IMG/VR virus record: IMGVR_UViG_3300021961_008157
Source of the DNA: a virus
DNA length: 64,000 bases
Strand: one strand, 5' to 3'
Shown one piece after another: positions 37,025 to 55,844 of this stretch. A model generated the notes under the pieces. That model was not told the origin of the DNA, ran no database searches, and was given only the letters and a program-made list of their open reading frames with translations. Each line of letters begins with the position of its first letter. The first letter of the stretch is position 1. The translations under genes and the position numbers were made by a program.

Positions 37025-37054
37025 ATTATAACAGTAAAGACATCACTATGTCAA
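37025..37054 (-). promoter_or_regulatory. sigma70-type promoter with extended -10
   Basis: TTGACA-N18-TATAAT with TG upstream of -10. Confidence 0.65.
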
Positions 37055-39119: not shown

Positions 39120-39211
39120 TGGTACCAGCGGAGGGGATCGAACCCTCTCAAGAACGCTAATCTGGCGCTAAAAGTCTTATAAGGACTCTCTGACTACCAA
39201 GTCTCGCTGGC
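39120..39211 (-). tRNA. non-canonical tRNA with TAT anticodon (nominal Ile, AUA)
   Basis: 7-bp acceptor, GAGGG-TTCGATC-CCCTC T arm, loop CTTATAA, tetraloop D arm, long variable arm, CCA. Confidence 0.8.
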
Positions 39212-39220
39212 ATTAAATTT

Positions 39221-39501
39221 TGGTGCGACTGGCCAGAATCGAACTGGCATGACTTGCGTCGAGGGATTTTCTTACCACTATAGTTTTCACTACCCTTTCG
39301 GTTTGTGGTCTGGACTATACCTTAACCATTGCTTTCGCTTTAGGTCCCCGCCGTCTAGTCTCTACACGTTCCCTTTTGGGTTTCGCTCGGTATTAGCATT
39401 TTACAGCCTTCACCGAATTTGACGGGTTCTACTCCTACCGTTTCCAGTAGGGCACTCAAATTTTCTAAGTCCCTTGTGTCTACCGATTTCACCACAGTCG
39501 C
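39221..39501 (-). tRNA. trnL: tRNA-Leu(TAA) split by a group I intron (exons 39467-39501 and 39221-39270)
   Basis: Joined exons give an 85-nt type II tRNA with AGGGA-CTTAAAA-TCCCT anticodon arm and CCA. Confidence 0.93.
39271..39466 (-). ncRNA. group I self-splicing intron (trnL-UAA type), 196 nt
   Basis: U.G splice pair in P1 (ACUU/GAGU), P AAATTCGGTGAA, Q AATACCGAGC, R GTGTAGAGACTAGACGG, S AAGGTATAGTCC, terminal G. Confidence 0.93.
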
Positions 39502-39513
39502 ATTATGTGTTCT

Positions 39514-39542
39514 ATTATAGTACACTATTAATTAAATGTCAA
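39514..39542 (-). promoter_or_regulatory. sigma70 promoter of tRNA-Leu/UAU-tRNA unit
   Basis: TTGACA-N17-TATAAT. Confidence 0.8.
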
Positions 39543-45733: not shown

Positions 45734-46110
45734 CATCTGGTTGTTTATTTTACAAGGTAAGTCCTACCCCGGGTCTGGCTCAAAGTGCCAGTACAGCGGC
45801 CTTGCTACGGCTGTAGAACTTGATGTTCTTGCCGCTAACAGTTACGCTACCATTTGTAGATGCGTTTGCATTTACTAGTTTTATGCGATTAACGTTCGTC
45901 ATCTAACGTGCTGTCCAGTTCAATACTCTTTACTCAATCGATCGCTATGTCAGGCCCATCATAAACACATTGGATTTTGGATTCGAACCTTGTCCTAGTG
46001 TTGTCCATCTGCACTTCCCACAGTACTGAACCCTATGTGTTTATGGTGGACCTGCCCGGTACCGCCCCGGGGTCTTGAATCCTTTTCTATCACCTTCATA
46101 CAGCAATAAC
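45712..46110 (-). ncRNA. ssrA: circularly permuted (two-piece) tmRNA
   Basis: Acceptor piece ending CCCGG-GGCGGTA-CCGGG-CAGGTCC-ACCA (46044); 86-nt hairpin-closed spacer; coding piece starting GGGCCTG (45957) with G3.U70; tag ORF 45780-45869. Confidence 0.9.
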
Positions 46111-46128
46111 TTACATTATATATTTATT
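46085..46128 (+). repeat. 44-bp direct repeat, copy 1 (tmRNA -10 and 5' end)
   Basis: Identical to 47142..47185. Confidence 0.95.
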
Positions 46129-46144
46129 TTAGCCAATGATAAGT

Positions 46145-47017
46145 TTATAGGTTATGCTTTTTCCATTCTGCACGAACCCTGGCTTTAGACTTTGCTGATA
46201 ATGGAACATAGTCCAAATCTTTTGCCATTGAGTCGCCATTTGTATAGCACCATTCAAAGAACTTGATTGCTTCTTTCGCAGAGCTATCTGGATAAACAAT
46301 GATGTAAGTTTCAGCAGTTAATTTGTAGTTGCCTTCTTTGAAATTATCAAAATTTGCTTCAACACCGTCTAACTTAGCAACAGTTAAACTATTGGATTTG
46401 GTGTAAGCATATTCAACGTATCCAATGGAACCAGGCAATCGCATAACCATTGCAGCAACACCGGCGTTGCCTTTACCTTGTGCAATGTTGTTACCTTCCC
46501 ATTTAACTGTCTTTCCTGGTTTAGTTGTAAAACCGTGTTTAGCCAGATAGTTTGTAAAAACAGAAGTAGTGCCAGAACTATCAGCACGGGATATCCGAGT
46601 AATTGCCAAGTCAGGCAACTTAGAATCAATTTGCTTCCAGTTTGTAACACGACCATCAAAAATATCAGCTATCTGTTTGCTTGTTAAATTTAACTCATTG
46701 GTCTTGACACCTGGAATGTTTACTACTGCAACAACACCACCCATGACCATTGGGAACTGGATCTGACCATTCTCATCCAACTCTGCTTGTTTAACTGCTT
46801 CGTCACTTGCACCAAACTGTACAATCTTTCCATTAATCTGTTTGATTCCGCCGCCAGAACCAATCGCCTGATAGTTGACTTGCACACCTGTTGCTTTGTT
46901 ATACTCTGCTGCCCATTTGCTATAAATCGGCGCAGGAAAGGTAGCTCCTGCACCAGTGACTGTAATTGCTTGAGCATTAATTGCAAATGCAGCAAGAAGC
47001 ATTAATAATTTTTTCAT
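46145..47017 (-). CDS. pstS: phosphate ABC transporter substrate-binding protein PstS
   Basis: GAGATFPAPIY, YQAIGSGGG, FGASD, RADSSGTT, IGYVEY. Confidence 0.95.
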   Translation of the reverse strand: MKKLLMLLAAFAINAQAITVTGAGATFPAPIYSKWAAEYNKATGVQVNYQAIGSGGGIKQINGKIVQFGASDEAVKQAELDENGQIQFPMVMGGVVAVVNIPGVKTNELNLTSKQIADIFDGRVTNWKQIDSKLPDLAITRISRADSSGTTSVFTNYLAKHGFTTKPGKTVKWEGNNIAQGKGNAGVAAMVMRLPGSIGYVEYAYTKSNSLTVAKLDGVEANFDNFKEGNYKLTAETYIIVYPDSSAKEAIKFFEWCYTNGDSMAKDLDYVPLSAKSKARVRAEWKKHNL

Positions 47018-47141: not shown

Positions 47142-47185
47142 TTCTATCACCTTCATACAGCAATAACTTACATTATATATTTATT
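47142..47185 (+). repeat. 44-bp direct repeat, copy 2
   Basis: Identical to 46085..46128. Confidence 0.95.
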
Positions 47186-47200
47186 CATTATTTTTGTCAA
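47172..47200 (-). promoter_or_regulatory. sigma70 promoter upstream of pstS/tmRNA
   Basis: TTGACA-N17-TATAAT. Confidence 0.8.
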
Positions 47201-48218: not shown

Positions 48219-49022
48219 TTATTTCGAAGCAAGGTCAATATAATTATCAAACATATCGCCGATAATTTTTGCTCTTTGCTTTATATTTTTGTTGCCCAGC
48301 GTAACCATAGTGTAAAGAACACCATCCTTTTCCACTAACATAGCCAAACAACGACCAGCAGCAGTAGTCCACCCAGTTTTGGTTAGAACTATTTCGTTGT
48401 GCTTGAACACCCATTGATTGGTATTACGCAATTGAATTTTCACTGGCTTTTTGCGTTTTGGCGGAGTGTATTCAACCAGGTACTGTTGAGTGCTGCTTAG
48501 GAACTTGATCAGTGGATACTTGTTTAGCGTTAATAAAAATTCTGTCAACTCGCGCACCGTGCTAACATTTGCACTTAGCAGTCCTGTGCTGTCAGCAATC
48601 TTGGTGTTTACCAGTCCCATCTTTTCAACATGCATATTAGCATCGATTAAAAACTGTTCATAACCACCGGGATGTGCGCGGGCCAGCGACTCAGCTGAAC
48701 GATTGTCGGAACTCATCAGCATAGCTCGTAGTAGTTCATAGCGTTCAACCCGTGCGCCATTGGCAAAACGTCCCGAGCTCCTACCGTTTACTTTGATGGG
48801 TTCATATAAATTAACGCCGCTGTTTAAAACAGTATAAGCAGTAAACAGTTTGGTAATGCTGGCTATGCTACGAACATCTTGTGTTTCTTTTTCAAGTTCA
48901 AACCGTTGCTCGCGAGCATTGTACAATCCATAACTGTTGTACTCTGCTTCATCAGCAAGGCTGCTCCTTGAAAACAACAATGCCAAAACCGCAAAGGATA
49001 GGTATGCGATGCCTTTAATCAT
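48219..49022 (-). CDS. D-Ala-D-Ala carboxy/endopeptidase, peptidase S11 (PbpG-like)
   Basis: ASITK, SDN, KTG, AGRCL; signal peptide; start re-assigned to MIKGIAY. Confidence 0.9.
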   Translation of the reverse strand: MIKGIAYLSFAVLALLFSRSSLADEAEYNSYGLYNAREQRFELEKETQDVRSIASITKLFTAYTVLNSGVNLYEPIKVNGRSSGRFANGARVERYELLRAMLMSSDNRSAESLARAHPGGYEQFLIDANMHVEKMGLVNTKIADSTGLLSANVSTVRELTEFLLTLNKYPLIKFLSSTQQYLVEYTPPKRKKPVKIQLRNTNQWVFKHNEIVLTKTGWTTAAGRCLAMLVEKDGVLYTMVTLGNKNIKQRAKIIGDMFDNYIDLASK

Positions 49023-49049
49023 GTTAATACTTAGCACAGGGCTAAAAAT

Positions 49050-49139
49050 TGGCGGAAGCGGTGAGATTCGAACTCACGATACCGGTTAAGGTATGACGGG
49101 TTAGTAATCCGTTGCCTTCGGCCACTCGGCCACGCTTCC
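49050..49139 (-). tRNA. tRNA-Ser(ACT)
   Basis: Type II cloverleaf, G73, loop TTACTAA, CCA. Confidence 0.88.
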
Positions 49140-49636
49140 TAAAATTGTCCATTAACTGATCGTAATCTAGCATTACCCAAATCACGAAAACGATCTGCTG
49201 CATAACTTGCAGCAAACGCATGGGGTTTAACTGCGGGGGTAAGATTACAAGTTCCTTTTATATATCCAATGGCTTGTGCAATTACACAATTAGAACCATG
49301 TGTTTCATCGGGATTGATGTCTAAATGTACTTCAACAAACCTGCCGGCAAACGAGTCACTTAATCGCTGATACATGTCGGACACTTTATAAACTTCGTTC
49401 ATCAGTCGCAATGCGGGACGACCCACACGATTATCCCAGTCACGCTCCCGCACCACTTCTCCGAATATTTTACAGCCACTATTGCCATTAATGTGCACCA
49501 CAATGGCTAGAGTGTAATCTGCATACCAACCGTCGAATAGTTTAACACGCTCACTGTCACAACCTAGGTAGATACGGGTTTCGGCGCTTTGGGCTTGAAT
49601 AAACTCCTTGACCTGCTCTATGTCGATTGTTTGCAT
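49139..49636 (-). CDS. RNase H-like YkuK (DUF458) family protein
   Basis: IYLGCDS, RLMNEV, VEVHLDIN, ASYAAD. Confidence 0.8.
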   Translation of the reverse strand: MQTIDIEQVKEFIQAQSAETRIYLGCDSERVKLFDGWYADYTLAIVVHINGNSGCKIFGEVVRERDWDNRVGRPALRLMNEVYKVSDMYQRLSDSFAGRFVEVHLDINPDETHGSNCVIAQAIGYIKGTCNLTPAVKPHAFAASYAADRFRDLGNARLRSVNGQF

Positions 49637-50304: not shown

Positions 50305-51294
50305 TTATTTAACAGACACAACCAGGATACCGTTATTACCACCAAACCCAAAACTACATTTTAAAAAAGTTTTTTTTGATGAATCGTTGAAATTATCAAT
50401 TGCAGCAGCAAGTTCCACCAAACTGCTGGCGCCAAGTGTATGACCAATTTTTGATTTGTAAGATGTAATTGGAATGTTTGGAAGTATTTTACTGTGTAAT
50501 TCAAGTTCAACACTATCACCTGCTGGTGTTGCTGTAGCATGTGCATCCCAATAACTAAAATCTTCTTTAGAAATTCCTGACTTAGATATAGTATTTTCAA
50601 TTAAATCTTCTAACTTTTCAATATCAGATGGATTTGTTGGGTGTGTTGGAATTGTTTCATACCCTAAACTTTCTATTATTGCTTTTGTTTTTAAGTTGTG
50701 TTCTTCGGCAAAGTTTGTTGACGATACTATAATTGCTGCTGAACCATCGCCAAGCATTATGCCGCCGACGTTGCTATCCATTGGAGGTGCCCAAGTATCC
50801 GCTTTCGAAGTTGCCCCAATGCTGTTAAATATGTGCTTCATAAATTCGATGGAAGCAACTTCGGCTGATATAATTAGTGTTAGGCCCGAGTCGTTTCTTT
50901 GTGCTAATTGCAATGCCTTAATGCCCGAGGCACAGGCCGACAAAACACTAAACATATCTATGTTTGAACTTAACTTAGGATATAACCAAGCTAAATCAAC
51001 TACACCTAAGTATTGCAATGCTTTTGACGGTCGTGATCTGGCGCGACCTTGATTTATATTTTTATGTACTTCATCAACTGCGGTACTATCATTATATGTA
51101 CCTGCAACAATAATGGTATTAATAAGTGGTAATAAATGATCTGGTAACTCGGACAATGCTTTTTTCAGCAAATCAGAATAAGATAAATTTAATGGTATTA
51201 CCCAGCCCTGCTCGGTTTTTACAGGGGTTGCATTTTCAGTCACAGCATCTACATGCTTACTGTACAAAATAGACAACTTGGTTGGAATAATCAT
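50305..51294 (-). CDS. beta-ketoacyl-ACP synthase (FabB/FabF-like, shortened N-terminus)
   Basis: SACASG, LGDGSA, AHATATPAGD, KIGHTLGA, SFGFGGNN. Confidence 0.85.
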   Translation of the reverse strand: MIIPTKLSILYSKHVDAVTENATPVKTEQGWVIPLNLSYSDLLKKALSELPDHLLPLINTIIVAGTYNDSTAVDEVHKNINQGRARSRPSKALQYLGVVDLAWLYPKLSSNIDMFSVLSACASGIKALQLAQRNDSGLTLIISAEVASIEFMKHIFNSIGATSKADTWAPPMDSNVGGIMLGDGSAAIIVSSTNFAEEHNLKTKAIIESLGYETIPTHPTNPSDIEKLEDLIENTISKSGISKEDFSYWDAHATATPAGDSVELELHSKILPNIPITSYKSKIGHTLGASSLVELAAAIDNFNDSSKKTFLKCSFGFGGNNGILVVSVK

Positions 51295-51311: not shown

Positions 51312-51394
51312 TGGTGGGCAAGGAGAGACTCGAACTCTCACTCCGAGGAACTGGCTTCTAAGACCAGCGCGGCTACCAATTACGCCACTTGCCC
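51312..51394 (-). tRNA. tRNA-Leu(TAG)
   Basis: Type II cloverleaf, loop CTTAGAA, CCA. Confidence 0.95.
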
Positions 51395-51402
51395 ATTAGT
51401 AT

Positions 51403-51431
51403 ATTGTAGTTGATTTTTTGTAGTTTGTCAA
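51403..51431 (-). promoter_or_regulatory. sigma70 promoter of tRNA-Leu(TAG)
   Basis: TTGACA-N17-TACAAT. Confidence 0.7.
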
Positions 51432-51437
51432 GTGTAT

Positions 51438-51511
51438 TGGAGCGGGATACCAGAGTTGAACTGGTGACTTGTCCTTGGCAAGGATATATTTTACCCCTAA
51501 ACTAATCCCGC
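51438..51511 (-). tRNA. tRNA-Gly(GCC)
   Basis: Cloverleaf, loop TTGCCAA, CCA. Confidence 0.93.
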
Positions 51512-51528
51512 TTTCGTTTATTTATTGG

Positions 51529-51604
51529 TGGCTCCTCGACCTGGGCTCGAACCAGGGACCTACGGATTAACAGTCCGGTGCTCTACCAACTGAGCTATCG
51601 AGGA
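51529..51604 (-). tRNA. tRNA-Asn(GTT)
   Basis: Cloverleaf, loop CTGTTAA, CCA followed by a second CCA. Confidence 0.95.
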
Positions 51605-51723
51605 ATATAATTGGTTCGGTTTGTCTGACACTTAACCAATGAACTCTAGAATTCATTACGCTAAATTTCAAACCCAGGGTATTTAACCCGCGACATCAAT
51701 ACACCGAAAGGTTTTGATGCGTG

Positions 51724-51785
51724 TCCTTGATAGCATCACTGCTATTTCGTCCTTGTTACGTTGGACTCATCAGAAGGATAACGTT
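51724..51785 (-). ncRNA. type I hammerhead ribozyme
   Basis: TCCTT-CTGATGA-GTCC(AACGTAACAA)GGAC-GAAA-TAGCA(GTGA)TGCTA-TC^AAGGA; predicted cleavage between 51729 and 51728. Confidence 0.92.
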
Positions 51786-51788
51786 GTT

Positions 51789-51863
51789 TGGTGCGCCCGG
51801 GGAATTCCGACATCCCGACCCAGCGATTATGAGTCGCTTGCTCTGCCCCTGAGCTACAGGCGC
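51789..51863 (-). tRNA. tRNA with CAT anticodon, probably tRNA-Ile2 (lysidine)
   Basis: GCGACTCATAATCGC anticodon arm like enterobacterial ileX; atypical T loop GTCGGAA; CCA. Confidence 0.82.
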
Positions 51864-51902
51864 ATATTATAGAAAAGCTGACCGTCAGCTTATATATAAC
51901 AA

Positions 51903-51915
51903 ATTTTAAAGAACA
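51903..51915 (-). promoter_or_regulatory. boxA-like antitermination element
   Basis: TGTTCTTTAAAAT upstream of the tRNA cluster. Confidence 0.6.
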
Positions 51916-51989
51916 GTTGCATCAGTATTTTGCCGTTATAGCAAACCTCTCACTCGTTTGAATGACACAGTCACACTCTGACACAAAAA

Positions 51990-52236
51990 TGCTCTGCGTC
52001 CCCCGGCGGTAATTATACTGCATCAACGTAGCCCACAGACAGGACCCACCGCATCACACACAGCCTCCACCCGCTTCCCGACAGGGACCGTTCTCGCATT
52101 GCCAGCGCCGGTTAGGTTGGACCGCATCTTTCGACGTAAGACTATTATGTCTTAGAACCACCCGTGGCTATCACACCACTTCAATCCTCCGGGTCAGAGT
52201 AGCCGTTGATTAAACGGCACGGTTTTTACTGTCTAA
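51990..52236 (-). ncRNA. unidentified highly structured ncRNA (~240 nt)
   Basis: GC-rich, ORF-free, many hairpins and long-range helices, directly downstream of a consensus promoter. Confidence 0.7.
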
Positions 52237-52241
52237 ACGTT

Positions 52242-52270
52242 ATTATATAACAAATTTGATTTAATGTCAA
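52242..52270 (-). promoter_or_regulatory. consensus sigma70 promoter of the RNA operon
   Basis: TTGACA-N17-TATAAT. Confidence 0.85.
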
Positions 52271-52305
52271 CCGTTTTTGAAGCTGAGGAACCGATAAATA
52301 TTGTC

Positions 52306-52587
52306 ATGATTGAAGAATATACCGCATTGATTACCGATCATGGGTTCCCGGTTGTTGCCGCTCTTGCGGGTGGATACTTCATCTTTTTAACCATTAAATT
52401 CATTCTTCGTGGTGTTACTGAAAACATACGGGGACTAAAGGCAAACATTCAAGCACTAGAGCGACGTATTACTGTGATGAACAATGATATGAAACGCATA
52501 GACATCGCAGTCAGTAGAGTACTAGGCGTAGAAGCTGATTTAGACACTATTTCAAGATCCGAGCCCGACGATCGGAGAAAAGACTAA
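52306..52587 (+). CDS. small single-TM coiled-coil protein (GFPxxAA motif), start re-assigned
   Basis: HGFPVVAA; TAAATA 5 nt before ATG 52306. Confidence 0.65.
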   Translation: MIEEYTALITDHGFPVVAALAGGYFIFLTIKFILRGVTENIRGLKANIQALERRITVMNNDMKRIDIAVSRVLGVEADLDTISRSEPDDRRKD

Positions 52588-53987: not shown

Positions 53988-55844
53988 TTAAAAGTTATAT
54001 TTTGCCGCAACATAAAAGGTCCTGCCTAATTGAGCATAACCCGATGGTTGCTCATATTTTTTATCAGTAATGTTATTTATTTTAAAACTTACTGTTAATT
54101 TTTCGTTAAACCACGATTCTTCAATGAAGAAATTATAAGTTGCTACACTATCGGCTTGAAAACGTGCAAATGTTGTACCATTTAGGTCATACATTTGTCC
54201 CATATAATTTGCTGACAGTCCAACTTTGAGATTGGGTTTTGCATGCCAAACAGCATGTGCATTACTAGACCACTGTGGGCGTCTTAGCTTTTGCATACCT
54301 AAACTATCAATGCTGTTATTATATGTTGTATTGGTCTTTATCTCAAATTGATTAAAGCGTTTTTTAAGTGCAACCTCAACACCTTGGCTGCTCGATACAC
54401 CTGAGTCATTTTGATATGTAGCAGTAAATGTGCTTGAGTCATACACATATGCAACGGCATCTTTGGTCTTAATATAAAAGAATGTAATATCAAACCAATC
54501 TTGTTTGTAACCAACTTCGTATGAAACGCTGCGCTCTGGATTAAGATTCGGGTTACCACTAAAACCAAAATTATCTACACCGTATAGTTCATAAAATGTG
54601 GGCAAGCGAAAACCATTTGCTACTGATGCTTTAAAGCCATGATAGTAGCCACCAATTCGGCCAGTTAAATAACGATTATATTTTGTATTGGTATCGGCCC
54701 TGGCAGATATGTTTATTAACTGGTCTTTGTTAAACTTATATACGCTATTTGCAAATAGTGCATTATTTGTACGGCTTGAGTCTACAGTAGAAACATACCC
54801 ACCACTGGTGGTATCAATTTTTCCTGCTGTGTTTGAAAATTCATAACCAGTTGTAGTTTCGAATTTGTTAGACATTGACCAAAGTTGTGTAACTAAAACA
54901 GTATTGTTTACGCTATTAAACTTATCAATGCTGCCTTGATTATTATATTTTCTATCATGCATGCTGCGATTGTAAATTATTTTAGTACGATCATTGCTTG
55001 CACTTGCTTGAAAATTGCGCCAGCGCCAGTTGGCTGTATAGTTGTCAACATCTGCATTGCTGCTGTCTAAATTTGTAATGTTGTAATTTTGAATATAGCC
55101 TGTGTAATAAGTCCAATCATTGGAAAACGTTTTTTGCTGTAATGCAAAGTTGTTAAAAGAATATGGATCGCGCTCACTACCACTGGCATGTACGCTAATG
55201 TTATCAGACTTTTCGTGTTCACCTTCAAAGCTGACAATGGTGTCTTGCAAACGATGCCCTAATTTAACTTTCTTGTTAAATGTTTTGTTGCTGCCATAAC
55301 TGGCCAAAACATAATTATTGGCAGTTACTGATGTGGTCATGTCAATAACACCGGCAACAGCATTTGCACCATACAAACTGCCAGCAGGCCCTTTAATAAC
55401 GCTCACACGATCAAGTCCAACTGATGAATGTTGGCTGATATCGTCGGCCCCGCTCACAGTACTTTCATCTCTAATAGAAATGCCATTTAGTGTTAGTAGT
55501 GTATGATTCGAGTCTGTTCCTCGCAAAAACAAACTGCTACTTTGCTTGGTAGTACCATTTTGCATGATGTTCATGCTAGTTGAATTAGACGTAGATTCTT
55601 GTATGGTTCGGAATGGATCTAAATAAACAGTATTCCAGGTATAGGTACTACTAGCTTGCTCTGTAGGTGTTCTTGCTAAAACAATAGTAACACGATATGG
55701 TTCTAAATCAACATTGGTTACATGTTGCCCGGCAACATAGACTGTTGTTAAAGATGACAGTTTGCCAACTTTTTTTATTTCATCTGCATGTGTATAAGCA
55801 GACAAAAACAAAACAAACAAAATTACTGGAAGTTTTTTTATCAT
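53988..55844 (-). CDS. TonB-dependent outer membrane receptor (BtuB-like)
   Basis: LFLRGTDSNHTLLTLNG, VIKGPAGSLYGANAVAGVI plug, GNPNLNPE, NITDKKY, C-terminal F. Confidence 0.88.
   Translation of the reverse strand: MIKKLPVILFVLFLSAYTHADEIKKVGKLSSLTTVYVAGQHVTNVDLEPYRVTIVLARTPTEQASSTYTWNTVYLDPFRTIQESTSNSTSMNIMQNGTTKQSSSLFLRGTDSNHTLLTLNGISIRDESTVSGADDISQHSSVGLDRVSVIKGPAGSLYGANAVAGVIDMTTSVTANNYVLASYGSNKTFNKKVKLGHRLQDTIVSFEGEHEKSDNISVHASGSERDPYSFNNFALQQKTFSNDWTYYTGYIQNYNITNLDSSNADVDNYTANWRWRNFQASASNDRTKIIYNRSMHDRKYNNQGSIDKFNSVNNTVLVTQLWSMSNKFETTTGYEFSNTAGKIDTTSGGYVSTVDSSRTNNALFANSVYKFNKDQLINISARADTNTKYNRYLTGRIGGYYHGFKASVANGFRLPTFYELYGVDNFGFSGNPNLNPERSVSYEVGYKQDWFDITFFYIKTKDAVAYVYDSSTFTATYQNDSGVSSSQGVEVALKKRFNQFEIKTNTTYNNSIDSLGMQKLRRPQWSSNAHAVWHAKPNLKVGLSANYMGQMYDLNGTTFARFQADSVATYNFFIEESWFNEKLTVSFKINNITDKKYEQPSGYAQLGRTFYVAAKYNF

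Follow-up and report, generated by a model that had tools for sequence, protein, structure and literature searches.

A minus-strand cluster of RNA genes

The window, that is, the whole 64,000-nucleotide stretch of the viral record IMGVR_UViG_3300021961_008157, from an uncultured marine phage, carries a cluster of RNA genes on its minus strand. In the order of transcription, this cluster comprises a promoter (P1), a structured RNA termed ncRNA-A, approximately 125 nt of sequence ending in a hairpin, a tRNA gene with a CAU anticodon, a hammerhead motif, a 124-nt spacer and the genes for tRNA-Asn and tRNA-Gly. P1 (52242..52270, minus strand) is of the sigma-70 type, with TTGACA and TATAAT separated by 17 nt. 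It matches the consensus at 12 of 12 positions, and the consensus promoter that a first-pass annotation had placed at the head of the unit is present at 52270-52242. Its -35 box overlaps the start codon of a divergent plus-strand ORF (52264-52587). A second promoter of the same type, P2 (51403..51431, minus strand), lies within the RNA cluster and matches 11 of 12 positions (TTGACA, 17-nt spacer, TACAAT). Within the population we could compare just two near-identical haplotypes: P1 is 96% identical in the second one and P2 is 100% conserved. The window has five sites of the form TTGACA-N16-18-TAYAAT, where chance would give 0.15, and every one of them is on the minus strand.

The cluster extends beyond tRNA-Gly. 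P2 is followed by tRNA-Leu (UAG; 51312..51394, minus strand; called by ARAGORN, 57.6 bits in Rfam), the last RNA gene, and 18 nt past it begins an ORF from the ORF list that encodes a ketosynthase-like protein (50305..51294, minus strand; Pfam Ketoacyl-synt_C). The first-pass annotation had described a protein-free polycistronic operon. tRNAs, a ribozyme motif and a structured non-tRNA RNA indeed lie side by side; however, the unit is not closed at tRNA-Gly, as P2, tRNA-Leu and the ketosynthase-like ORF come after it and the terminator scan called no terminator on the minus strand, so the term protein-free has to be dropped. Judged from the sequence, the minus-strand unit is probably a phage RNA operon in which tRNA genes are interleaved with non-tRNA RNA modules, and cuts by the ribozyme and RNase P could free stable RNAs from a polycistronic transcript.

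Protein-coding neighbours did not lead to related clusters. The ketosynthase-like protein had no match among viral contigs; in its metagenome relatives (50-67% identity), the gene was found without an adjacent RNA cluster and the retrieved loci were without tRNAs. With orf107 and the STAS protein as baits, all matches were to the same population or to bacterial proteins. The RNAs showed no synteny with Melnitz or HTVC008M, and blastn of the whole cluster against 50,697 GenBank phage records returned tRNA matches only.

The tRNA genes

tRNA-Asn (GUU; 51529..51604, minus strand) and tRNA-Gly (GCC; 51438..51511, minus strand) were called by both ARAGORN and Rfam (68.7 and 56.2 bits, respectively), in agreement with the first-pass annotation. 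The tRNA(CAU) gene, with an encoded CCA (51789..51863, minus strand; body 51863-51792), scored 46 bits in Rfam, above the tRNA gathering score of 29. It was not called by ARAGORN and its T arm is aberrant and non-canonical; this tRNA may be impaired. In E. coli, C4-G69 and C5-G68 are identity elements for TilS, and the CAU anticodon of tRNA-Ile2 is read as lysidine-AU. The window gene (51863-51789) shows C4-G69 and C5-G68 as well as G1-C72, a paired 1-72 position unlike that of an initiator, and we take it to resemble tRNA-Ile2 by these elements, a rule that comes from E. coli. Of the previous designation as tRNA-Ile2, the tRNA(CAU) is therefore real and the Ile2 identity presumptive.

A type I hammerhead motif behind tRNA(CAU)

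A type I hammerhead motif (51724..51785, minus strand) sits 9 nt past the CCA of tRNA(CAU), with non-coding sequence and two further tRNAs downstream of it. It was recognised by Rfam RF00163, by a descriptor and in the MFE fold. On the minus strand, stem I (51778-51774 with 51728-51724) is open and has 5 bp; it is followed by the core CUGAUGA (51773-51767), which matches CUGANGA, by the loop-closed stem II of 4 bp (51766-51749), by the conserved core GAAA (51748-51745) and by stem III (51745-51730), which has 6 bp, a GUGA loop and A51745-U51730 as the A15.1-U16.1 pair. The cleavage-site base H17 is C17 (51729), not G, and the predicted cut falls at 51729/51728. Positions 51785-51780 are predicted to pair with loop II in a possible pseudoknot. 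The RF00163 score of 26.6 bits (E = 5.7e-4 in a 1.2-kb search) is under the gathering score of 34 because stems II and III have long loops. Nevertheless, the descriptor matched once in the window and never in 200 dinucleotide-shuffled windows, and the unconstrained MFE fold gave the same three stems. In the second haplotype, 67 of the 69 hammerhead positions are identical and both changes fall outside the core, the stems and the pseudoknot. The self-cleaving ribozyme motif proposed for this position was therefore recovered, with a perfect core and all three stems.

Because the cut is predicted at the hammerhead's own 3' side, a trailer of approximately 60 nt would stay on tRNA(CAU), and cleavage would fix the 5' terminus of the RNA that follows rather than the tRNA 3' end. 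HDV-type ribozymes, in contrast, cleave at their 5' boundary, so that the 3' end of the tRNA is set free, whereas the window hammerhead would remain on the tRNA trailer. HDV-like theta ribozymes are found directly downstream of phage tRNAs within clusters (Kienbeck et al. 2024, PMC10879173), a study in which hammerheads are not mentioned. The likeness to the window is that a small self-cleaving ribozyme directly follows a phage tRNA, but the type is a hammerhead and not HDV-like. Perreault et al. (2011, PMC3088659) described hammerheads flanking protein genes in prophages, mentioned tRNA once, in passing, and noted in many members a pseudoknot that links loop II to the flank of stem I. The window motif shares with these intergenic hammerheads the core, the three-stem type I topology, the possible pseudoknot and the phage setting; it differs by its position 9 nt past a tRNA CCA and by its Rfam score below threshold.

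Hammerheads adjoining tRNAs recur in unrelated phage contigs. Type I hammerheads start 1-12 nt past a tRNA CCA in L017, L171, L177/L179 and L181, and in L009 the predicted cleavage site coincides with G1 of tRNA-Tyr, so that RNase P would be bypassed. Searching the literature on hammerheads and phage tRNA maturation, we found no description of such an arrangement, and nhmmer searches with the hammerhead flanks against 170 phage loci returned nothing credible. The window hammerhead thus adds to evidence from several contigs that phages set self-cleaving ribozymes against tRNAs.

The hairpin, a boxA-like site and two spacers

Between ncRNA-A and tRNA(CAU), an extended hairpin (51865..51901, minus strand) ends 1 nt before the tRNA. 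Its GC-containing core of 7 bp (51891-51875) leads into a U-rich run, with four U in succession behind the inner stem and the U-rich tail base-paired in the outer stem. The hairpin is strong (z = -4.07; 0 of 200 shuffles fold as well), and the single haplotype difference in the stem region is located in the loop. It had been called terminator-like: the strong hairpin stands, but the consensus terminator scan does not call it. The hairpin lies approximately 90 nt past the ncRNA-A 3' end and is lineage-specific among 170 phage loci. Conceivable roles are those of a weak terminator, of an attenuator or of a hairpin for processing.

A boxA had also been proposed in this interval. A 13-mer at 51903..51915 (minus strand) resembles the E. 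coli rrn boxA in being A/U-rich and in its place, an untranslated leader ahead of a long operon of structured RNAs, for which antitermination would be plausible, but only 10/13 positions match. Boxes with at most two mismatches occur three times in the window against 3.9 expected, so that a site with three mismatches is at chance level in such AT-rich sequence, and we do not retain the boxA. Likewise, the 73-nt multibranch element (ncRNA-B; 51915..51988, minus strand) was not borne out, with a fold z of -1.41 and no homologue in 170 phage loci; it is 100% identical in the only other haplotype.

The 124 nt from the hammerhead cut to the tRNA-Asn 5' end (ncRNA-C; 51605..51728, minus strand) contain three predicted hairpins. 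Between the hammerhead and tRNA-Asn, 118 nt fold more stably than their shuffled versions (z = -3.16), in line with the structured RNA of about 120 nt that had been proposed, but this fold is without comparative support: none of the five haplotype differences is compensatory, and the predicted pairs are not preserved. ncRNA-C was also considered as the ~125-nt hammerhead-fronted RNA of L001 and L015, which is unlike it in sequence. With nhmmer, neither ncRNA-B nor ncRNA-C had a credible homologue in the 170 phage loci. Pattern scans of metagenomes with the hammerhead and its loop and with the window-type P4 insert of ncRNA-A both gave zero matches and hence no intermediate relatives for testing B and C, which may be mere spacer.

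ncRNA-A belongs to a widespread covarying RNA family

ncRNA-A (51989..52224, minus strand; 236 nt) is a member of a phage-specific structured RNA family, identified by its profile match and by covariation. GC content rises to 57% at 52000-52199, against about 30-45% around. The family was searched with profile HMMs and exact-motif scans. Its 23-nt core is present in at least 119 IMG/VR contigs and in only 1 contig among 185,579 prokaryote species genomes; carriers are uncultured phage contigs of IMG/VR and ENA metagenomes, and 0 of 50,697 GenBank phage records. We collected 115 full-length copies, 85 of them distinct (alignment A3), with lengths of 173-280 nt.

The alignment supports a fold of at least six helices with one pseudoknot and GNRA-capped optional hairpins; approximately 70 positions, in junctions and loops, are near-invariant across phages. 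Compensatory change, on both sides of the pair, was seen at 25 of the 41 proposed pairs, and 99.2% of cells are paired. Covariation scored 0.457, compared with 0.160 for shuffled alignments (0/500 reach it) and at most 0.09 when partners are slid. Across the family, pair 68-142 of the pseudoknot changes from U-A to C-G, and the tertiary pair 162-169 is U-A in 77 sequences and C-G in 8. Covariation across related phages, which the first-pass annotation had named as a check, is thus found for ncRNA-A in a widespread family. One candidate helix, closing 5' ACGU with the AACGG segment, showed no compensation in A3 and was discarded. A conserved UAUAAU was considered as a DNA-level -10 box and rejected for want of a conserved -35, the upstream sequence being a variable hairpin.

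The window copy is a full-length member (nhmmer E = 4.2e-50, profile positions 2-200, 52223-51989) and contains the exact 20-mer and 23-mer core motifs common to the family. It has the optional two-hairpin insert, with GAAA capping one hairpin. As row 1 of A3, it can form the elements P1-P8 of the fold, the pseudoknot and the 162-169 tertiary pair; the differences between it and L026 include switches from C-G to U-A in P5 and from U-A to C-G at 162-169.

No Rfam 15 covariance model overlaps ncRNA-A at E <= 10 in the window, L044 or L038. Superficial motif likenesses to RNase P RNA, SRP RNA or 5S rRNA, and to cobalamin or other riboswitches, Y RNA or HDV-like ribozymes, found no Rfam support and these candidates were rejected. 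By blastn, neither ncRNA-A nor a consensus-like member had an ncRNA-A relative in the 50,697 GenBank phage records, and a full-text literature search with a 19-nt core string found no paper. The novel structured RNA of ~240 nt that had been noticed at this position is hence confirmed and extended to a family, which is in no catalogue and is the real novelty of the locus.

Genomic setting of the ncRNA-A family

Members of the family live in tRNA arrays. Same-strand tRNAs are present at 111/114 loci (per locus, the median is 13 on this strand and 0 on the other) and flank ncRNA-A on both sides in 90 of the 114; the identities of the flanking tRNAs are variable. The upstream tRNA ends at most 15 nt before ncRNA-A in 70/114 loci, where its CCA mostly abuts directly, and in 27 loci a tRNA begins 5-12 nt past the ncRNA-A 3' end. 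When the 2-4 variable leading bases are counted, however, spacing from ncRNA-A to tRNA is not tighter than tRNA-tRNA spacing (mode 6 nt). What lies downstream of the 3' end differs between loci: tRNAs, ORFs or further RNA modules, in 11 loci an ORF equipped with a ribosome-binding site, and no conserved terminator or anti-terminator. The window copy shares the family context in having four same-strand tRNAs downstream. It is atypical in that a promoter, not a tRNA, precedes it, and in that the next tRNA is ~125 nt away; in just 1 of the 114 other loci does ncRNA-A look like the first member of its array.

Some protein families also recur near ncRNA-A (RpoZ-like, metallophosphoesterase and PF04308 RNase H-like proteins), each at only 17-29 of 131 loci, which may reflect shared ancestry.

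The arrangement recalls phage T4, in which the non-tRNA stable RNAs rnaC (species 1) and rnaD (species 2) abut tRNA-Arg on the same strand, rnaD beginning 1 nt past it. ncRNA-A is placed likewise, and the processing steps of tRNA maturation presumably also set the T4 RNAs free, as we propose for ncRNA-A. However, at 173-280 nt ncRNA-A exceeds both T4 RNAs (119 and 139 nt), and its profile found no match in T4 68000-76000 even at E = 100, indicating no homology to the T4 RNAs. GOLLD and ROOL are often near tRNA genes. These phage-associated non-coding RNAs are, like ncRNA-A, complex-folded (10.1101/2024.12.08.627333), but they measure ~580-800 nt against ~200 nt, and ncRNA-A has no Rfam match and no common sequence motifs with them.

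What ncRNA-A may do

Taking sequence as our guide, ncRNA-A appears to be the functionally important non-tRNA part of the cluster. Our best guess, to which we give somewhat less than an even chance, is a trans-acting RNA whose target is some universally conserved part of the machinery for tRNA handling or translation. A bolder reading, which we hold to be doubtful, sees in ncRNA-A a new class of catalytic or factor-binding RNA that serves phages with large tRNA sets in processing, protecting or deploying these tRNAs. Examples would be a ribozyme that works on the ends of tRNAs, and a decoy or scaffold that engages a universally conserved tRNA-handling factor.

Action in cis on the neighbouring tRNAs, as a processing element and possibly as a new self-cleaving or tRNA-processing ribozyme that matures or protects the adjoining tRNA ends, is an alternative that we consider unlikely. 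Most members start right after the CCA of the upstream tRNA and 27 end 5-12 nt before the next one, as such an element might; the near-invariant positions, the pseudoknot and the GNRA-capped peripheral hairpins resemble ribozyme or riboswitch conservation, and ribozymes are used in phage tRNA arrays, both hammerheads and HDV-like theta ribozymes (PMC10879173). Yet no Rfam 15 ribozyme family matches, the spacing is no closer than between ordinary tRNAs, the window copy follows a promoter and is remote from the next tRNA, and in 11 loci ncRNA-A precedes an ORF with a ribosome-binding site. In the window, ncRNA-A has a promoter on one side and, on the other, a strong hairpin that carries a U-rich run; this position would suit a leader-type regulator, a riboswitch or attenuator in which a ligand or factor sets transcription of the downstream tRNAs via the hairpin at 51901-51865. 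The size and conservation of ncRNA-A, comparable to large riboswitch aptamers, and the ORFs close behind some members could be read in the same way. We nevertheless consider a leader very improbable: in 90/114 loci the RNA sits inside arrays with tRNAs on both sides, its 3' context varies with no conserved terminator or anti-terminator, and the hairpin is both distant and lineage-specific.

Finally, the whole locus might be an ordinary tRNA cluster with an inactive hammerhead relic and spacers, ncRNA-A of the window included, that are degraded after processing. This would agree with B and C lacking comparative support, with a boxA at chance level and with a hammerhead under the Rfam threshold. 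It has little probability in our view, as spacer status leaves unexplained the conservation and covariation of ncRNA-A in at least 119 contigs, and a relic would hardly have all core nucleotides, three stems, a possible loop pseudoknot and a descriptor count of 0 in shuffles, or recur beside tRNAs in unrelated phage contigs.

A proposed model for expression of the cluster

The following steps are proposed. Host RNA polymerase would read the sigma-70-type promoters and start approximately 7 nt past the -10 box of P1. The transcript would cross ncRNA-A, the ~125 nt of lineage-specific sequence with its hairpin, tRNA(CAU), the hammerhead, the 124-nt spacer, tRNA-Asn and tRNA-Gly; P2 would boost transcription, with read-through into tRNA-Leu and the protein genes. 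The hairpin at 51901-51865 and its U-rich run could stop many transcripts before the tRNAs, in which case ncRNA-A would be a separate unit. Host RNase P would cleave the 5' end of each tRNA, while the hammerhead would cleave itself at 51729/51728, leaving tRNA(CAU) with its ~60-nt trailer and a cyclic phosphate end, and a downstream product that begins with a 5'-OH. Host 3' trimming enzymes would finish the tRNAs, and ncRNA-A would be freed on the 5' fragment and trimmed to a discrete stable RNA.

The usual view of a phage tRNA cluster is that of a list of tRNAs; in this one, the interest lies in the parts that are not tRNAs. ncRNA-A is a candidate new RNA class of ~200 nt, with conservation of riboswitch or ribozyme grade, covarying, phage-restricted and absent from Rfam and from cultured-phage records, and it bears on a 50-year-old puzzle, the role of the stable RNAs of the T4 tRNA cluster. 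If ncRNA-A does form a new class of catalytic or factor-binding RNA, it would, together with the tRNA-linked hammerheads, free these arrays in part from their need for the RNA-processing enzymes of the host.

When the two haplotypes are compared, whole tRNA bodies are swapped within otherwise identical flanks, which suggests that the array is an actively reshuffled module. Such a module is relevant to phage escape from tRNA-targeting defences.

A structured RNA family in phage tRNA arrays

The window locus is a genuine, unusual phage RNA operon, and its best-supported new element is ncRNA-A, a 236-nt RNA read on the minus strand at 52224-51989. The first-pass annotation had placed a structured RNA of ~240 nt here. 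Indeed, this GC-rich block (57% GC in the ~250 nt after the promoter P1 versus ~30-45% in the rest of the region) matches the family profile over its full length. Exact copies of a 20-mer from the ncRNA-A 3' end are carried by 23 IMG/VR contigs (6-337 kb), and exact copies of a 23-mer from its core by at least 119; among 185,579 prokaryote species genomes, the core 23-mer was present in only one contig, a 23-kb MAG contig. Profile searches of the fetched loci yielded 115 full-length copies of 173-280 nt, 85 of them distinct. No match to the window copy or to a consensus-like copy was found in 50,697 GenBank phage records, three different members searched against Rfam 15 gave no family match up to E = 10, and a literature search with the core string found no paper.

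In the alignment of the 85 distinct members (A3), the 5' part forms three hairpins, and the GACCC loop of one of them is invariant. A pseudoknot arises from pairing of the P4 loop with a conserved GGU, P5 is a short hairpin whose last loop base pairs with a downstream A, and the variable hairpin P6, which carries a symmetric UGAU/UGAU internal loop, is enclosed by two helices, of which P7 is long-range and P8 invariant; the 3' tail is likewise without variation. P4 accepts optional hairpin inserts, two of which are present in the window copy, one GAAA-capped. Standard pairs were found in 99.2% of 3,480 cells, versus 83.4% after shuffling, with changes on both sides in 25 of the 41 pairs. The covariation score was 0.457, compared with 0.160 for shuffles (0 of 500 reached 0.457), and it was at most 0.09 when partners were slid by 1-3 columns. 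Switches between U-A and C-G occur in the pseudoknot pair and also in the tertiary pair. In P7 changes are confined to one side and P8 shows none, thus these two helices are proposed, not proven.

In 111 of 114 loci, tRNA genes share the strand of the RNA; the median per locus is 13 tRNAs on that strand and zero on the other. An upstream tRNA ends within 15 nt of ncRNA-A in 70 of the 114 loci, usually with its CCA directly abutting, and in 27 loci a tRNA starts 5-12 nt past the ncRNA-A end; elsewhere, further recurrent non-coding modules or an ORF follow. Moreover, the identities of the flanking tRNAs differ among loci. All together, the family thus fills a "tRNA slot" in phage arrays. A ~80-nt RNA with a closing stem of 10 bp was observed directly 3' of ncRNA-A in 30 of 123 loci (L062, L065, L068 and others), and a second recurrent non-coding module 3' of it in 11 of 123.

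Among the protein families near ncRNA-A, RpoZ-like, metallophosphoesterase, PF04308 RNase H-like and Peptidase_S11 genes were each found in only 10-29 of 131 loci (RpoZ-like, PF01192, in 29; besides the window, PF04308 in 17 and Peptidase_S11 in 10, with L070:6091-6579 and L164:6999-7760 as examples). In the window, the latter two lie downstream of the RNA cluster, at 49139-49636 and 48219-49037. Such neighbours may reflect shared ancestry or a functional link, and no firm partner emerges from them.

Layout of the operon

The promoter P1 (52270-52242, minus strand) had been described as consensus, and it matches sigma-70 at 12 of 12 positions. It is one of five near-perfect TTGACA-N16-18-TAYAAT sites in the window (37025-37054, 39514-39542, 47172-47200, 51403-51431 and 52242-52270), all on the minus strand, where 0.15 would be expected by chance; this suggests a gene set read by the host polymerase. 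The tRNAs of the earlier description were recovered: tRNA(CAU), missed by ARAGORN, was found by Rfam at 51863-51792 (minus strand), and tRNA-Asn and tRNA-Gly follow in this order. A tRNA-Leu comes next. The hairpin called terminator-like (51901-51865) is strongly non-random (fold against shuffles, z = -4.07). It may, speculatively, attenuate read-through, possibly raising ncRNA-A above tRNA abundance. A terminator scan called no minus-strand terminator.

Besides the 73-nt multibranch element (below), two features of the first-pass annotation were not confirmed. The boxA proposed at 51915-51903 differs from the rrn consensus at three positions and was rejected as chance level, since chance would already give ~4 sites per window with no more than two mismatches. 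Nor is the operon protein-free: a second consensus promoter (P2, 51431-51403), tRNA-Leu and a ketosynthase-like gene come after. On the plus strand, the complement of the P1 hairpin of ncRNA-A together with an A-rich leader reads terminator-like (52202-52218), just upstream of a divergent ORF (52264-52587) whose promoter must overlap the ncRNA-A 5' end.

A hammerhead motif beside tRNA genes

As had been noted, a type I hammerhead motif lies between tRNA(CAU) and tRNA-Asn on the minus strand, with every core nucleotide in place: CUGAUGA at 51773-51767, GAAA at 51748-51745, C17 at 51729, and the A15.1-U16.1 pair. Its Rfam score of 26.6 bits is below the gathering score of 34 (E = 5.7e-4 in a 1.2-kb search). 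Stems I, II and III have 5, 4 and 6 bp, the hammerhead fold is the unconstrained MFE fold, and a strict descriptor found 1 site in the window versus 0 in 200 dinucleotide-shuffled windows (both strands). Pairing is possible between the six bases that immediately precede stem I (51785-51780) and five loop II bases, a contact of the kind reported for hammerheads by Perreault et al. (PMC3088659). The hammerhead is probably active. The predicted cut, between 51729 and 51728, would leave the ribozyme on the tRNA(CAU) trailer, a ~60-nt stretch with a cyclic phosphate end, and a 5'-OH on the downstream RNA; the hammerhead would therefore set the start of the downstream piece, not the tRNA 3' end.

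The same arrangement, with type I hammerheads starting 1-12 nt after a tRNA CCA, was found at L017:224-399, L171:5948-6085, L177:2586-2680 (and L179) and L181:9781-9974. In an array of 21 tRNAs (L009:2634-2771, minus strand; IMGVR_UViG_3300028388_001937), stem I is made of the acceptor 5' strand of tRNA-Tyr itself and the predicted cut lies precisely at the G1 position of this tRNA, which would yield a 5'-OH 5' end independently of RNase P. A literature search found no paper describing a hammerhead set against a tRNA in this way. Hammerheads have precedents in phages, though none is known to stand in the relation to tRNAs seen in the window, and theta ribozymes (PMC10879173) are another ribozyme class with a different cut geometry. 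At L001:3336-3520 and L015:1422-1610, a hammerhead is followed by a common RNA of ~125 nt, which is not alike to the spacer downstream of the window cut.

Spacers and haplotypes

The smaller structured RNAs proposed around the tRNAs fared unevenly. Spacer C, the 124 nt from the cut to tRNA-Asn (51728-51605), folds better than shuffles (z = -3.16), whereas B, the supposed 73-nt multibranch element (51988-51915), does not (z = -1.41). No relatives at a useful distance were found for either; in the sole other haplotype (L026, L166 and L169, all from ENA project PRJEB7840), C differs at five positions, at which the predicted pairs are not kept, and B shows no difference. Both are thus unproven as RNAs in their own right.

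Between these two haplotypes of one phage, identity is 94-100% in the spacers, promoters, hammerhead and most of ncRNA-A (96-100% for spacers and promoters alone), 91-97% in neighbouring genes, only 70% in the variable 3' part of ncRNA-A (51990-52069), and only 55-82% in the four tRNA bodies, with the divergence bounded by tRNA ends (51312-51863 versus L026:4067-4626). One tRNA in each haplotype is odd-looking and non-canonical, and the slot it occupies differs between the two. It looks as if tRNA cassettes were replaced within fixed slots.

Proposed processing and role

With the promoters, tRNAs, hammerhead motif and the family membership and fold of ncRNA-A established at sequence level, a processing scheme may be suggested: host RNA polymerase would initiate at P1, RNase P would cut the transcript at every tRNA 5' end while the hammerhead cuts in cis, the tRNAs would be finished by 3' trimming, and ncRNA-A would build up as a stable RNA.

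The ~70 near-invariant unpaired or junction positions of ncRNA-A, together with covarying helices and dispensable peripheral hairpins, suggest either a conserved partner or an activity. We tentatively favour a role in trans, on tRNA handling or translation; that ncRNA-A is instead a cis processing element or a ribozyme seems rather unlikely. A leader regulator is the least probable reading, one we consider improbable. The one unusual thing about the window copy is that it stands first, 12 nt behind a promoter. Among known systems, the T4 tRNA cluster with its rnaD and rnaC next to tRNA-Arg comes nearest, without sequence homology to ncRNA-A in a profile search. GOLLD and ROOL exceed ncRNA-A in size, and Rfam shows no relationship to either.

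Phage setting

The window seems to come from a large marine phage that is uncultured. Proteins similar to its small ones occur in Pelagibacter phage HTVC008M and Methylophilales phage Melnitz, and auxiliary genes are numerous (radical SAM enzymes, a TonB-dependent receptor, a hybrid histidine kinase). Compared with GenBank phage records, the flagged stretch shares tRNA sequence only. ARAGORN called 9 tRNAs in the window, which also encodes a permuted tmRNA of the two-piece type (45736-46158) and a group I intron (39120-39476) adjoining a 92-nt tRNA-Ile(UAU) call. The TonB-dependent receptor gene (Plug and beta-barrel domains, 53988-55844) is cleanly missing from the otherwise collinear L026 haplotype, and is thus a recent gain or loss.
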